Virus record (IMG/VR): IMGVR_UViG_3300029805_000015
Span: 1-6,701 of that record
Source of the DNA: a virus
DNA length: 6,701 bases
Reading direction: 5' to 3' (one strand)
Numbering within the stretch: the first letter of the stretch is position 1; every line of letters begins with the position of its first letter. The notes under the pieces are model-generated. The model ran no database searches, had not been told where the DNA came from, and saw only the letters and a list, made by a program, of their open reading frames with translations. This document shows positions 2,168-6,701 of this stretch, piece by piece. The position numbers and the translations under genes are program-made.

Positions 2168-3472
2168 TCAGGAATAAGATAACCAGTCTGGGTTTTCAAA
2201 TTCATATCGAGATATTTTCTCGTCTGGCATTTTTCCAGAAATTGGAAATTCTAAGGATTTAGGAATACCGTCTCTTGTTATATCATTAATAATATCTTCA
2301 GCGCTTCGACCAATTTCAGTTAACGCATTAATAAGTTTTCCGTACTGACGCTTGCAATGTGAAATCATTGAATCCAATGTTATCTGAGCTTTCTTCTTTT
2401 GTATATTAACTAGTTTAATGCGCTCATCAGAAATAAACTCTAAAGCTTTGCATGAACCCGCTAAGTATTTTCCAGGTTCAGTAAGGGTATCCCACGGTAT
2501 ATAGAAATTAGATGCTTTAAGCTCAAGCTCAACACGAACCCATGCGGAGTTTTCGTCACCTAACTGCTTACCTTTCTCATAAATTCGATAATAACGTGCG
2601 CTCGACCTAGAACCCACATACGCAGTCAAACCCTTGTTATCTACGTCATCATTAAGCCAATCACCAACTTGAGAAAACCCCGGCATACGACCGCCGTTTG
2701 CATTATTGTACAAGCCTTCCTTTCTATCTTCGTTAACTTGACGAACTCGATAAGTAGAACCATCCATATCATCATAAGCGAGATCAACACGACGAAGCGA
2801 AGCGTTGATAAACTTACCCCATGACTTTATCTTATTCCAACCGAAACCTTGAGAATGAATATACTCGCAACCCTCGGCATTAAAATACAATTGAACTGTA
2901 GAATTATTTCCACCCCAAGCTACAAAACCAAGCATTGTACTCAATTGCTCGCCGTTCTCATTCTTCGTGTACATCAATTTTCTAGTATTATGATAAAAAT
3001 TCTTGGCACCCATTGGGTCACCAATTTTTATACCTACCATTTTAGAGAAATCATTTGATATAGAAGAAAGAACATCCTCATCACCGAAAAGATCCGGCAT
3101 GATCCTCATATAATCGTCAATTTTCAAAACCAGCGAACAAGTATCAATAATCGCACAATCATTGTTTGCTGACTCCATTGGTATTAAAGAATCAACAAAA
3201 GAGAAACCAGAAGAAGAACGGACAAGAATACCCCCCAGATTGTTCACGGTTTGACCGTTCCGGGGAGTTAGCCCACGTATTACTAGTGTGGGCTGATCTA
3301 CTTTCGTCCGATGATGTGAAAATTTATGAGGGTCAAAAGTAGATAAAGAAGGGTGTGTAGGAGGTAGCCAAGAGAAAGGGCCATCGAACATAATTGCTTT
3401 AAAATCAGACGGTTCATATAGAACATCGTCAACATTAACAGTCGTATCGTTAGAGTTTATTGATTTAAGCAT
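2168..3472 (-). CDS. Rolling-circle replication initiation protein, Rep_trans / RstA-like
   Basis: Translation contains LRRVDLAYDDMDG and TAYVGSRSSARYYRIYEKGKQLG...WVRVELELK. These resemble the RxDLAxD and Y-x-GSR-x-S-x(3-4)-RIY-[DEN]-K motifs of Rep_trans initiators (pT181 RepC, CTXphi RstA). The start is ambiguous. The track begins at a TTG at 3646, and ATGs occur at 3634 and 3472. I favour 3472 because the upstream 174 nt is AT-rich, carries hairpins and translates poorly. Confidence 0.85.
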   Translation of the reverse strand: MLKSINSNDTTVNVDDVLYEPSDFKAIMFDGPFSWLPPTHPSLSTFDPHKFSHHRTKVDQPTLVIRGLTPRNGQTVNNLGGILVRSSSGFSFVDSLIPMESANNDCAIIDTCSLVLKIDDYMRIMPDLFGDEDVLSSISNDFSKMVGIKIGDPMGAKNFYHNTRKLMYTKNENGEQLSTMLGFVAWGGNNSTVQLYFNAEGCEYIHSQGFGWNKIKSWGKFINASLRRVDLAYDDMDGSTYRVRQVNEDRKEGLYNNANGGRMPGFSQVGDWLNDDVDNKGLTAYVGSRSSARYYRIYEKGKQLGDENSAWVRVELELKASNFYIPWDTLTEPGKYLAGSCKALEFISDERIKLVNIQKKKAQITLDSMISHCKRQYGKLINALTEIGRSAEDIINDITRDGIPKSLEFPISGKMPDEKISRYEFENPDWLSYS

Positions 3473-3902
3473 TTTGAACCCGGCTATTTGCCGAGCTAGA
3501 ATAATAATATATACTAATATACATATATCTGAGCTTCCGTGAAGAGCTTGGCGATCGTTGATCGGGAACCTCAAGGGCTGTTTGCGCAGTTCTTGAGGCT
3601 TTATATTTCCACTGTCAGATTCAATATTCCGCATTGCAGAAATCAAAAAATCTAATCTTGTGTTAACGACGCTACCGACAATGATCGATTAAACAAATAA
3701 CGCCGCAATTTTATTTAAACAGCAGTCAGCTGATTTTACAAGGTAATTGCGTTTGAACCGTAGGCGAATGCTCACTATAGAGATTACCGCTCCCCAGCTT
3801 CTTCCCCCGTCATCGAAGGTTTTTTAAAAGGGTTAGCCATTAGGTAGTGTATTCGTTATACAAATAGTAACTATACTATAATGGTATTCCGTTAATTGAG
3901 AT
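3473..3902. other. Large intergenic region upstream of rep; candidate replication-origin / rep promoter region
   Basis: No convincing ORF. Hairpins at 3552-3564 (CGATC-GTT-GATCG) and 3569-3598 (CCTCAAG...CTTGAGG, extendable to 12 pairs). AT-rich block at 3500-3530. Palindromes TCAGCTGA (3726-3733) and ATCGAT. Pyrimidine tract at 3788-3810. Ff phages have their origin region directly upstream of gene II. Confidence 0.35.
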
Positions 3903-4337
3903 TTAATCAAATATAGTAGTTTGAAGTTTAGCGTCTGATTCAAGCGCTACTAAATACTGTTTATTTAAATACTTATTAATAATTTGGGAATTAGTCAGAC
4001 CTTCAGAATCAGAAATAGCAGAAAGCTTACACCACGCTTCAAAGTCTATATCTATAGACTTTCTCTTACCTTTATCCTTACGGTTTCTACCTGCCCTAAT
4101 TGATGTTTTTAACTTTGACCAATCTTTTGACGTTAAGAATTTTTCACACCATTCGTTAAGCTTTACAGTAGCTCTAAAGTCAACTTTTTTGTATTCTTCT
4201 AAAGCAACGTCGATACATTGACGATTTCTCATATGATTATTGAATGATTTGTAATCATTTGCATTAAATTTATTATCTATCCAACGCCTCACGAAAATCA
4301 AATCAGACTTAACAATTGTGTATTTTTTCTTCGGCAT
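3903..4337 (-). CDS. MatP-like DNA-binding protein (helical N-terminal part plus ribbon-helix-helix C-terminal part)
   Basis: 144-aa ORF with its ATG at 4337. The segment LNEWCEKFLTSKDWSKLKTSIRAGRNRKDKGKRKSIDIDFEAWCKLSAISDSEGLTNSQIINKYL aligns by eye with E. coli MatP [69 protein letters not shown]. Shared positions are W..K, LK.[ST]IRA.R.R, [RK]KSID[IL][DE]F..W..L and G.T.S..I. This is recalled from memory, not from a search. Confidence 0.65.
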   Translation of the reverse strand: MPKKKYTIVKSDLIFVRRWIDNKFNANDYKSFNNHMRNRQCIDVALEEYKKVDFRATVKLNEWCEKFLTSKDWSKLKTSIRAGRNRKDKGKRKSIDIDFEAWCKLSAISDSEGLTNSQIINKYLNKQYLVALESDAKLQTTIFD

Positions 4338-4355
4338 AGTGATTTAGCCCTTTGC

Positions 4356-4486
4356 GTTACCCGGTAACTAGTAAAGCAATAGTACATTACGTTACCCGGT
4401 AATGCAATAGATCTAGATATATTTATATTTTATATTGGGTTACCGGGTAACGAATTCTGGCAAGCTGTAATGTGTTACCGGGTATC
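4356..4486. promoter_or_regulatory. Array of four 13-bp palindromes GTTACC[C/G]GGTAAC (candidate operators of the MatP-like protein)
   Basis: The four copies are 4356-4368 GTTACCCGGTAAC, 4391-4403 GTTACCCGGTAAT, 4439-4451 GTTACCGGGTAAC and 4474-4486 GTTACCGGGTATC. Centre-to-centre spacing is 35, 48 and 35 bp. The central base flips C,C / G,G across an AT-rich core (4407-4436) that contains the palindromes TAGATCTA and ATCTAGAT. The array fills the pI-to-MatP-like intergenic space. Confidence 0.75.
4379..4407 (-). promoter_or_regulatory. Candidate sigma70 promoter for the MatP-like/rep transcription unit, overlapped by palindrome 2
   Basis: The minus strand reads TTGCAT (4407-4402), a 17-nt spacer TACCGGGTAACGTAATG, then TACTAT (4384-4379). 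The spacer is largely the 13-bp palindrome at 4391-4403. An alternative is TTACCC-17 nt-TATAAA further upstream, overlapping palindrome 3. This is hexamer matching by eye only. Confidence 0.35.
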
Positions 4487-4487
4487 A

Positions 4488-5630
4488 CTAATTAATTGCT
4501 TCACTAACCCTATTCATACCCATCGTAACCATGTCCTGGTTACGATCTTTTTTGCAATATGCATAACGAACAGCTTTCTTAACAGTAATCTTAACAAGGC
4601 ACTGGGATATATAAGATATTGAGCCGCCTAGTTTTTTGATCTGACGTGAATTTAAGTCAGTATAGCTAGATCCATATTCAACACTAAATACATAGCTCGG
4701 AGTAGCACCAAAGCTCATATTCGATGAAATGTATATAGAACCTCTCAACAACGGATGAGGATCATTTTTAACAACTTTAACTTTTTTAACCTTGAGCTTT
4801 TTCGCCTCATGCTCCGATCTAACAGATTTAACAGAGTCAGTATCAACCGTAGAAGCACTTTGAGGACCAAGAGAACCACGAGAACTTTTCGCATAAAGAG
4901 AACTTTCACCATTGATAAATTCATCGAAAAAATAGTATCCAACGGGTACTGTAACCAAAACAAATAAAACTAATAAAACAAGAGAACCCTTTAATGCATT
5001 AGCCCTACCATCTGCGCCACTTTCTTTACCTGCGCCTCCGTCACTTTTAGTATGACTTTTATAATATTGAAATATTTTAGGCTTATACTTTCCGGGAATT
5101 TGACGTAAAAGTGCGTGTTTCGGCGGTTTAAGTCCACTAATAGAACCTTGATAGACATCGATCCTAAAAGATTTAGAAAAACCAATGGATGACATTTTTT
5201 TAGATATATATGTAGTAGCAACTAAATCTCTAGCAAATGCACAAACTTGATTTAAACCCAGCGTAACAAAAACTATTTCTGTAGATCTGTTGTCTTTACA
5301 AACGAGATGTCTATGCTCTGCTAAAAACTCTTTATGCTGATCAACCATCGTTGTTGATTTAAGACCCGTAGGCCAAAGCCGCCACATCTCATCGACTATA
5401 AAAATGACACCTTTAGGCAAAATATCAATAAACCAATTTTCATCATCTAGAATGTCTTGAATATCAAAAAGAGTAATATCAGCATGAGGATAATCTCTAA
5501 GTATCACATCTAAATGCAAAGGGATGTTAGTCCAAATTTTTCTATCATCTTTAATAGCGTTAATAATAACGTTTTGTACAACACCGTAACTTTTGCCAGA
5601 ACCTTGCAAACCGCAATACGCTGTAATCAT
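4488..5630 (-). CDS. Zot / pI-family phage assembly NTPase
   Basis: 380 aa. N-terminal Walker A CGLQGSGKSYG, Walker B-like GVIFIVDEMWRLWP, and a single central transmembrane segment SLVLLVLFVLVTVPVGYYFF followed by a periplasmic C-terminal domain. This is the architecture of gene I / Zot proteins. It sits directly after the pVI-like gene with a 3-nt gap. Confidence 0.9.
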   Translation of the reverse strand: MITAYCGLQGSGKSYGVVQNVIINAIKDDRKIWTNIPLHLDVILRDYPHADITLFDIQDILDDENWFIDILPKGVIFIVDEMWRLWPTGLKSTTMVDQHKEFLAEHRHLVCKDNRSTEIVFVTLGLNQVCAFARDLVATTYISKKMSSIGFSKSFRIDVYQGSISGLKPPKHALLRQIPGKYKPKIFQYYKSHTKSDGGAGKESGADGRANALKGSLVLLVLFVLVTVPVGYYFFDEFINGESSLYAKSSRGSLGPQSASTVDTDSVKSVRSEHEAKKLKVKKVKVVKNDPHPLLRGSIYISSNMSFGATPSYVFSVEYGSSYTDLNSRQIKKLGGSISYISQCLVKITVKKAVRYAYCKKDRNQDMVTMGMNRVSEAIN

Positions 5631-5924: not shown

Positions 5925-6701
5925 CTAAGCCCTCAAAATTATTACAATTCCAAAAATAACCCAAATAGCCGACATAGCAGAAGCCATCAAACCTGACATT
6001 GATGTGAAGATCTGACAATGAGCTTGTGTTGTTATAGATGTACCAAAAACTTGAAAATCAATTATTGGACAAGTGCCGCCCGTTGGCCAAGCCTGCGAGG
6101 CTCCTACAGACATTTGATAAATCGGTGCCTGAGTCAATCGATCGTAAAATATTGAATTTGTTTCAGACATCGTATTTGCTGTAAAAATACCAGGCGAGCT
6201 AAAAGACTGATTACCGAAGTCCAAGTCTCCGATACTTGTACCTGAATCTCCTGTGTCTGTTCCAGTGTCTGTTCCAGTGCCAGTACCTGTTCCGCTAGTT
6301 CCAGTTCCAGTTCCAGTTCCGCTATCGCCATTTCCAGTTCCGGAATCTCCACTTCCATCATCCGATCCATCACCCGATCCATCACCTCCATCATCACTTC
6401 CATCTCCACTTCCGTCTCCATTAGCATCAGTGCTAGTGCCAGGGCAACCCGGCGCGGTTGGAATGTAATAACAAATGATAGGAATATCTGGATCATCTTG
6501 TACAGATTCATGTTCAGGATCACTCAATCCATCAAAATCATCTAACACACCTTCCCCGTCAACTTCAGCACAAATGTCAGCGCAATTTCCAAAACAAACT
6601 ACAGTACAACCACCATCATCATTGCCAGGGTCTGGATTAGCCGCTGGATTATCTTCACCCCATTCACCAACTTTGCATTCGTTGCCTGTAAGATTATAAT
6701 C
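5925..6701 (-). CDS. pIII-like minor coat / adsorption protein, 3' (C-terminal) part; 6583-6701 duplicates 1-119
   Basis: The frame is open from the window edge to TAG at 5925-5927. It encodes a Cys-containing region, a long Gly/Asp/Ser/Thr linker (GDGSGDGSDDGGDGSGDGSDDGSGDSGTGNGDSGTGTGTGTSGTGTGTGTDTGTDTGDSGTS), a C-terminal domain and a membrane anchor AMSAIWVIFGIVIILRA. This matches the g3p domain-linker-anchor layout. Confidence 0.82.
   Translation of the reverse strand, partial: DYNLTGNECKVGEWGEDNPAANPDPGNDDGGCTVVCFGNCADICAEVDGEGVLDDFDGLSDPEHESVQDDPDIPIICYYIPTAPGCPGTSTDANGDGSGDGSDDGGDGSGDGSDDGSGDSGTGNGDSGTGTGTGTSGTGTGTGTDTGTDTGDSGTSIGDLDFGNQSFSSPGIFTANTMSETNSIFYDRLTQAPIYQMSVGASQAWPTGGTCPIIDFQVFGTSITTQAHCQIFTSMSGLMASAMSAIWVIFGIVIILRA
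6253..6385. repeat. Short tandem repeats encoding the low-complexity pIII linker
   Basis: GTGTCTGTTCCA x2 (6253-6276), a CCAGTT x3 run (6301-6318, extended by partial copies) and CCGATCCATCAC x2 (6362-6385). All are in frame with the Gly/Asp/Ser/Thr linker. Confidence 0.85.
6583..6701. repeat. Terminal direct repeat, right copy (identical to 1-119)
   Basis: See the left copy. It begins right after ...gtcagcg at 6582. Confidence 0.97.

Follow-up and report, generated by a model that had tools for sequence, protein, structure and literature searches.

The DNA considered here, the 6,701 nucleotides of IMG/VR virus record IMGVR_UViG_3300029805_000015 (hereafter the window), ends in an exact 119-nt terminal redundancy (positions 1-119 are repeated at 6583-6701), so it represents the whole of a circular genome 6,582 bp long, and its gene content identifies it as a filamentous phage (inovirus). 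The minus strand of this genome carries a gene for a Zot-type assembly ATPase (zot, 4488-5630, stop codon at 4488-4490), a gene for a 144-amino-acid relative of the chromosome organizer MatP (3903..4337) and, downstream of and co-directional with the latter, a Rep_trans rolling-circle initiator gene (rep, 2168-3646, probable start ATG at 3475). Our subject is the segment between zot and the MatP-like gene, in which four palindromic 13-mers that resemble matS, the site read by MatP, span 131 bp and overlap a putative promoter of the MatP-like gene.

An array of matS-like sites upstream of the MatP-like gene

The motif GTTACCSGGTAAC occurs four times in the window, with starts at 4356, 4391, 4439 and 4474 (start-to-start distances of 35, 48 and 35 bp) and with central bases C, C, G and G. 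When up to two mismatches are allowed, these four matches compare with an expectation of 0.07, and none of 200 shuffled sequences reached four; allowing up to three mismatches revealed no further copy in the window. A preliminary description of this DNA gave the same coordinates, spacing and central bases, all of which were recovered, and its statement that the genome holds no other full copy stands because the window is a complete circular genome, the only addition being a relaxed site at 1526-1538.

The two sites distal to the MatP-like gene are site 1 (GTTACCGGGTATC, 4474-4486), which directly follows the zot stop codon, and site 2 (GTTACCGGGTAAC, 4439-4451), and the two proximal ones are site 3 (GTTACCCGGTAAT, 4391-4403) and site 4 (GTTACCCGGTAAC, 4356-4368). 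Their arms, GTTAC and GTAAC, are perfect in two sites and carry one outer mismatch in the other two. The centre is CCG or CGG (CSG) in all four, as it is in the sites of a related phage, L001, and of two further elements described below, L026 and L083, and none of the four has the RNY centre found in E. coli. The earlier proposal that the phage motif keeps the matS skeleton with changed specificity positions, as expected for a retargeted site, was not upheld, as its arms are those of the experimentally defined cognate matS of Photorhabdus thracensis, GTTACNNNGTAAC (PMC8669397), and only the CSG centre departs from the RNY of E. coli.

On the minus strand, a proposed −35 element (TTGCAT, 4402..4407) shares 2 nt with the outer edge of site 3, most of which lies within the 17-nt spacer that leads to a proposed −10 element (TACTAT, 4379..4384). 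Site 4 begins 10 nt after the −10 element, where it would cover approximately +1 and the 5′ untranslated region, and ends 18 nt before the ATG, with a Shine-Dalgarno-like AAGGG (4348..4352) placed 10 nt before the start codon. The assignment of this promoter is based on its homologous layout in other elements (L026, L083 and a second inovirus lineage, see below). As far as sequence can tell, site 3 between the hexamers and site 4 near +1 have the placement of an operator over the core promoter of the adjacent gene. Upstream of the −35 hexamer, an AT-rich core (4404-4438; 20% G+C versus 36.6% for the genome) separates site 3 from site 2 and contains the nested palindromes TAGATCTA and ATCTAGAT that had been described there.

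Comparison with L001, which belongs to the one group of relatives (L001-L003, L015) whose MatP-like protein is 89% identical to that of the window, shows that conservation within this region is selective. The sites are identical to those of L001 at 47 of 52 positions and two inter-site spacers at 23 of 44 (Fisher P = 5e-5); site 1 is identical at 13 of 13 positions and site 2 at 11 of 13, and the 9-nt cores, TACCSGGTA, change at the central S only. Each promoter hexamer has a single substitution in L001 (TTGCAT to TTGCGT and TACTAT to TATTAT), and the Shine-Dalgarno-like element there is AAGGAG. Within the AT-rich core, AATATAAAATA is conserved, and the TAGATCTA and ATCTAGAT palindromes, which are absent from L001, were rejected as functional features. 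The same fate befell the symmetric 2+2 arrangement in which the two pairs of sites face each other: it is present in the window but it is not conserved, as the central base of site 2 flips between C and G and the order in L001 becomes C, G, G, G. Separately, a plus-strand, terminator-like hairpin with a T-run (4522-4546; ATCGTAACC...GGTTACGAT CTTTTTT), which is antisense to the 3′ end of zot and about 35 nt from site 1, was considered and rejected; it is probably non-functional because it is not conserved in L001.

A MatP-family protein and the recurrence of its probable sites

The 144-amino-acid protein is a true member of the MatP family, as first suspected from its sequence, on the basis of Pfam, its match to solved MatP structures and its predicted fold. 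Residues 91-125 match Pfam PF17414 (MatP_C) at 30.0 bits versus a gathering cutoff of 24, and the MatP N-terminal domain, PF06303, scores 19.1 bits, below its cutoff of 27. A phmmer search of solved structures returned MatP only, with the best match to 7nyw_I of P. thracensis (E 4e-7), followed by the Yersinia and E. coli proteins (E values to 2e-4). The AlphaFold2 model, built with 78 homologues, has a predicted local distance difference test (pLDDT) score of 84, with helices at residues 10-25, 29-35, 39-51, 57-67 and 70-88; its six highest-ranking PDB matches in Foldseek are MatP chains without exception, aligned along the entire protein with probability 1.0 and template modelling (TM) scores of 0.53-0.66, and generic ribbon-helix-helix (RHH) repressors such as CopG rank far below them. 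In the predicted layout a helical N-terminal domain is followed by a basic helix α4, the RHH segment and a short C-terminal helix, so that the N-terminal helical bundle with α4 is present in the predicted structure, and the basic IRAxRxR helix is conserved among homologues. The last helix of the model runs on to residue 143, with confidence falling at its end (pLDDT 69, then 55); in MatP, tetramerization and ZapB binding are mediated by a C-terminal coiled coil. Sequence identity is 24% to E. coli MatP in a multiple alignment and 19-23% to solved MatP chains in structural alignments. In MatP itself, α4 and β1 enter the major groove to read matS (PMC8669397).

A word-indexed protein search returned the 144-amino-acid protein itself and one relative of 89% identity, so an exhaustive search was needed to reveal the wider family: full-length relatives of 120-150 residues, which form no fewer than 150 clusters when grouped at 50% identity. 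Many of these are encoded by standalone chromosomal genes, several of which lie in a thiD-...-DUF3467-mazG neighbourhood and others in genomes of Hahella, Nitrosomonas and Mariprofundaceae. The closest of the distant relatives (P0003, P0196 and P0211) are 37-42% identical to the window protein, and all are found on mobile elements unlike the window phage, namely the second inovirus lineage and the mini-element described below. In one chromosomal locus (L008:2393-3424), the MatP-like gene is located about 1.6 kb from a gene with a Tus/Ter domain (PF05472), a hint that a connection with the replication terminus extends to this clade of short MatP-like proteins.

Sites of the same type recur beside the genes for these homologues. 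In a second inovirus lineage (L016-L019), which has a Phage_CRI initiator and a MatP-like gene opposed to rep and the structural genes, the 13-mers GCTACATGGTAGC, GTTACATGGTAGC and GTCACAAGGTAGC lie at −97, −58 and −30 from the ATG and another lies just past the stop codon; these genomes contain 7-8 matches versus 1.1-1.4 expected, which none of 200 shuffles equalled. Here a TTGAAA and a TATAAT hexamer are separated by 17 nt with a site inside, and a further site begins 8 nt after TATAAT and ends 17 nt before the ATG, so both inovirus lineages have a site at −30/−31 before the MatP-like ATG. A similar arrangement is found in a circularly permuted mini-element of 3,565 bp (L090/L091), which encodes a Phage_CRI Rep, an HTH_19 protein and the MatP-like protein, has no recognized structural genes and may be a satellite of filamentous phages. 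In L091 its four sites are at −138, −97, −58 and −30, one of them filling the spacer between TTGAAA and TATAAT and the next lying 8 nt past the −10 element.

A pattern scan of genomes identified two other elements, each with a pair of GTTACCSGGTAAC sites, that encode a homologue. In L026, a 5.7-kb Rep_3 plasmid-like contig, TTGACA, a C, a site, GCC and TATACT follow one another directly, and a second site lies 7 nt further on; in L083, a conjugative element that bears TraG, a site is followed after 5 nt by TTGACA, after another 18 nt by TACCAT, after 3 nt by the second site and after 20 nt by the ATG. The promoters of L026, L083, the second inovirus lineage and L091 are near consensus, with L026 giving an unambiguous layout, and the hexamers of the window have this geometry but are weaker. 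Chromosomal homologues have sites at −19 to −48, and L008 has the identical GTTACCGGGTAAC at −48. Across the loci analyzed, strict matS-skeleton sites have a background rate of 7.7e-5 per nt, or a chance of 0.0076 per locus within 100 nt upstream of the gene, and a site was present within that distance in six of the eight lineages that had not been picked by the motif (binomial P ~5e-12).

Three further observations came from this survey. Most returns of the genome-wide pattern scan came from a multi-copy element of Burkholderiaceae (L023-L088; Ralstonia, Cupriavidus, Paraburkholderia and Trinickia), in which GTTACCCGGTAAC-N15-GTTACCGGGTAAC flanks TTGCAT (for example, L042:5166-5208) and adjoins an IS66 transposase gene and an 86-amino-acid open reading frame (ORF; L042 5230-5490) with a basic helix and an RHH-like segment; this ORF aligns weakly to α4 plus RHH (hhalign probability 6%) and was not counted as support. 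The coding sequence of many homologues also contains a matS-like 13-mer (GTTACCTTGTCAC, GTTACATTGTCAC or GCTACATTGTCAC) that specifies the conserved VTLS residues in the RHH helix, at +273 from the ATG in L008 and in L020/L021/L092, +342/+348 in L016-L019 and +351 in L091. This 13-mer may be an intragenic site or may reflect no more than coincidence in the coding sequence, and the window gene, which encodes GLTNSQ, does not have it. Finally, dif-like XerCD sites are found directly downstream of the MatP-like gene in the second inovirus lineage (L017:790-817 and 905-932; L019:6657-6684; L016:6952-7160). Two are present in L017, inverted as in CTXphi attP, one was scored in L019, and L016 is an integrated prophage in which the junction with host DNA lies just past these sites. 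The same scan found no dif-like site in the window or L001, and a link between the array and Xer-mediated integration was dropped for the window phage.

The preliminary description also suggested a search for co-variation between the RHH strand and the palindrome. When this was done, the DNA-facing start of the strand was found to track the site centre across about five independent groups: a β1 of K-S-I/V-D/T pairs with a CSG or NGG centre (window, L026, L083 and L008/L009), K-Q-I-T with AWG (P0003, P0196 and P0211) and K-T-V-T with CTT (the thiD-mazG group). The footprint against L001, the recurrence of the motif in five other genetic contexts and this co-variation indicate that the palindromes are very probably the cognate sites of the MatP-like protein, as had been proposed.

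The genes for enterobacterial MatP proteins show a comparable feature. In E. coli K-12 (NC_000913.3, ~1,018,460-1,018,472; L089:1461-1473), a perfect GTTACACGGTAAC ends 12 nt before the matP ATG. Among enterobacterial matP upstream regions from metagenomes (L093-L172; protein identity 89-100%), all 28 distinct variants have a site whose position is fixed at −25 and which follows a conserved CTGATATTCTG, with arms GT[T/G]AC/GT[A/C]AC and with neighbouring bases that vary. A consensus promoter scan found no promoter upstream of E. coli matP. Because all examined enterobacterial matP genes keep a matS-like site before the start codon, these sequences suggest that enterobacterial MatP autoregulates its synthesis. 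Literature searches returned no report of matP autoregulation or of MatP homologues on phages or mobile elements, although such an absence is not proof.

Proposed negative autoregulation and competing explanations

From these observations we consider it likely that the 131-bp segment is a matS-type operator array through which the phage's own MatP-family protein represses its gene. Sites 3 and 4 would be the operator proper, bracketing the −10 element of a σ70-type promoter, with site 3 filling the −35/−10 spacer and site 4 covering the start site and 5′ untranslated region. Dimers bound to these two sites would exclude RNA polymerase, leading to negative autoregulation, and the same repression would extend to any transcription that reads through into rep. 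Sites 1 and 2 are envisaged as auxiliary, adding cooperativity via a higher-order complex across the AT-rich tract, which is positioned as a putative UP element.

Several points weigh against this proposal. The −35 element of the window matches the consensus at only three of six positions, and the proposed promoter went unreported in a consensus scan. Four sites over 131 bp exceed the need of simple occlusion, and a pure self-regulator would be purposeless, so the protein or its complex must have a further role. In addition, the arms equal those of natural matS, so host MatP could also occupy the sites; the co-variation comes from only about five independent groups; and the homologues of Hahella (L011) and Nitrosomonas (L013) are without an upstream site.

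The need for a further function is itself an argument for a broader, if doubtful, alternative, in which the array and its bound protein, besides acting in autoregulation, form a centromere-like or tethering complex that could pair replicative-form molecules, link them to the host Ter region or divisome, or unload MukBEF-type structural maintenance of chromosomes (SMC) complexes from the small circle. The bridging or looping by dimers of dimers put forward in the preliminary description would be another possible role of this kind. MukBEF is known to be unloaded by MatP at matS (PMC8669397). The MatP-like gene sits on small elements that have no partition genes (inoviruses, the 3.6-kb mini-element and the 5.7-kb Rep_3 contig), and sites 1 and 3, like sites 2 and 4, lie 83-84 bp apart, or about 8 helical turns. 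The inovirus subfamily also keeps a C-terminal tail, YLxxxxxDAxLQxDL, that shorter chromosomal homologues do not have, and its YLxxxxxDAxLQ portion aligns loosely with E. coli ...YANKMSSLKQDLQ, but this alignment is short and weak, the number and spacing of sites differ between lineages and the window genome has no partner gene such as one for a nucleoside triphosphatase (NTPase). A less probable alternative, which we regard as unlikely, places the host at the centre: host MatP would be the main binder, or the phage protein would act mainly on host matS to mimic or interfere with Ter organization, and the array would be secondary. This would account for arms shared with P. thracensis matS and with the site upstream of E. 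coli K-12 matP, for the closest solved structure being that of P. thracensis MatP (with SID[LI]DF in β1 of both proteins) and for the use of an identical 13-mer by the chromosomal homologue in L008. However, the sites co-vary with the adjacent gene, and the CSG centre is kept in the four window sites and in L026 and L083, which encode their own homologue, which argues for a self-encoded reader; genome searches gave no matches for the window lineage. It is more speculative still, and improbable in our estimate, that mobile elements have repeatedly captured MatP-matS as a portable Ter mimic that does more than repress its own gene, either tethering the replicon to Ter and the divisome for its inheritance or unloading MukBEF/Wadjet-type SMC complexes as a counter-defence; if this were true, the matP operator would reveal an unrecognized feedback that sets the MatP level against matS occupancy.

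Two other explanations invoke the DNA rather than the MatP-like protein. The array follows zot much as the intergenic region of Ff phages follows gene IV, and its predicted fold is strong (−27.1 kcal/mol; z = −4.9 versus shuffles), as might be expected of a single-stranded DNA hairpin that acts as a packaging signal or minus-strand origin. Yet any repeated palindrome folds well, the strong folding being a by-product of this repetition, and the sites of the window are predicted to pair in a nested way (1-4, 2-3) but those of L001 as neighbours (1-2, 3-4), with changes that are not compensatory; the same motif also accompanies homologues where the DNA is double-stranded, on chromosomes, plasmids and conjugative elements, and the genome offers a 430-nt conserved non-coding region and a 22-bp hairpin (2094-2159) for such roles, all of which makes this explanation very unlikely. 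The least probable reading, to which we give hardly any weight, is that the four sites are iterons of a plus-strand origin bound by the Rep_trans initiator, for which their intergenic position, AT-rich centre and location upstream of the replication module could be cited. An origin had been raised from the outset as an alternative to a regulatory site, and it is disfavoured because the motif stays with the MatP-like gene in the company of unrelated initiators (Rep_trans, Phage_CRI and Rep_3 elements) and chromosomal genes; moreover, conservation in the array is confined to the sites and promoter elements, and it is the region adjacent to rep that is 88% conserved.

Genome context and comparison with known systems

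The latter region, which occupies about 430 nt of non-coding DNA between the MatP-like gene and rep (3476-3902, minus strand), is 88% identical to L001 and far better conserved than the inter-site spacers of the palindrome region, and origin and packaging elements are more likely to lie here. An AT-rich ATATATGTATATTAGTATATATT tract and a hairpin with a 13-bp stem (3569-3598) are among its features. A promoter-like TTCACG-16-TATATT (3543..3516, minus strand) precedes the rep ATG at 3475, so that rep probably has its own promoter behind this region. The view that the array covers the only plausible promoters for a unit of the MatP-like gene and rep was therefore only partly borne out: the sites do overlap the proposed promoter of the MatP-like gene, but the remainder fails because of the probable rep promoter. 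No intrinsic terminator was detected on the minus strand between the two genes, so rep may to some extent be controlled through read-through. Beyond the end of rep, between this gene and a 50-amino-acid plus-strand ORF, two perfect inverted copies of 22 bp enclose a loop of 22 nt (2094-2159); this hairpin could serve as a terminator in both directions, in packaging or as part of an origin.

Other minus-strand genes of the window encode a DUF2523/pVI-like protein and a small coat-like protein, and the plus strand has two small ORFs. The larger of these (69 amino acids, 1605-1814) has an RHH-like appearance, as do small ORFs of the second inovirus lineage (L016:5785-5952; L019:5568-5750), and a Pfam scan of the window ORF gave no match, nor do the existing annotations of the second-lineage ORFs list one. 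In both lineages these ORFs of 55-69 amino acids (for example, ATIRVKEDTYDKWEKL...) are divergent from replication or structural genes, and they are candidate phage repressors distinct from the MatP-like protein. The relaxed matS-skeleton site mentioned above (GCAACATTGTTAC, 1526-1538) is located in the divergent promoter region between an ssb-like gene and the 69-amino-acid ORF, upstream of the ssb-like and structural genes. L001 has it without any change, directly beside TATAAT, and the second lineage has a full site 17 nt before the ssb ATG (L017:5122-5134). The site at 1526-1538 might be recognized by the MatP-like protein as an additional target, or it might be an operator of the 69-amino-acid protein. 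Short tandem repeats at 6250-6420 encode a Gly/Ser/Asp/Thr-rich linker of the pIII-like adsorption protein, which is ordinary for inovirus pIII.

Several metagenome assemblies hold identical or near-identical, circularly permuted copies of the window genome. Among GenBank phages, neither a megablast search with the whole window nor a tblastn search with the 144-amino-acid protein gave a match, and the window Rep matches distant inoviruses only. A search for related loci with a tighter alignment returned the known relative only, and scans of viral contigs with the single proteins P0004, P0005, P0006 and P0009 gave no match.

An RHH autorepressor with an operator in its own promoter is a known kind of mechanism. 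For example, CopG of pMV158 and its promoter Pcr, as well as Arc and Mnt of P22, represent RHH proteins acting on pseudo-palindromic operators over their own promoters, and in pMV158 the repressor gene is immediately upstream of the gene for a rolling-circle initiator. The phage has the same gene order, with the MatP-like gene upstream of a rolling-circle rep, though its co-transcription with rep is putative. Compared with CopG, Arc and Mnt, the phage reader adds a helical bundle and α4 to the RHH segment, and its four sites are discrete and separated. A second parallel is provided by ParR-parC of plasmid R1 and by ParG-type arrays, in which RHH-binding repeats act as both operator and centromere. 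In both cases the repeats lie on either side of the core promoter from which the protein's gene is read, but the phage repeats are palindromes rather than direct iterons, and the window genome encodes no ParM/ParA-type NTPase, its only NTPase being the Zot-type assembly protein.

The closest comparison is with the MatP-matS systems of E. coli, Yersinia pestis and P. thracensis, which share with the phage the same full-length predicted fold and the same 13-bp palindrome with a G..AC-N3-GT..C skeleton, the phage arms being identical to those of P. thracensis. Relative to these MatP proteins, the phage protein has a linker before β1 that is 5 residues shorter and a shorter C-terminal tail; relative to the E. 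coli matS consensus, GTGACRNYGTCAC (arms GTGAC/GTCAC), the phage centre is CSG and not RNY. The sites also differ in distribution, as those of MatP are dispersed over the chromosomal Ter macrodomain, whereas all four full phage sites are clustered within 131 bp, over the promoter of the reader's own gene, on a genome of 6,582 bp. The −25 site of enterobacterial matP nevertheless follows the same logic as site 4 of the window, being placed between a −10-like element and the ATG, although the chromosomal gene has one such site and the phage array has four.

MatP has been regarded as a chromosome organizer restricted to enterobacteria and their relatives and acting on dispersed Ter sites. The novelty of this comparison lies in a MatP-family reader that mobile elements carry along with clustered matS-type sites directed at its own gene, and in a putative operator that is family-wide and includes enterobacterial matP. 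The self-targeting layout is common to two inovirus lineages, a 3.6-kb mini-element, a plasmid-like contig and a conjugative element, which raises the question of what a homologue of the Ter organizer does for a mobile element. With four sites and one small protein, the phage array is a compact system for analyzing MatP-type recognition, cooperativity and possible bridging, and the autoregulation suggested for enterobacterial matP is directly testable in E. coli.

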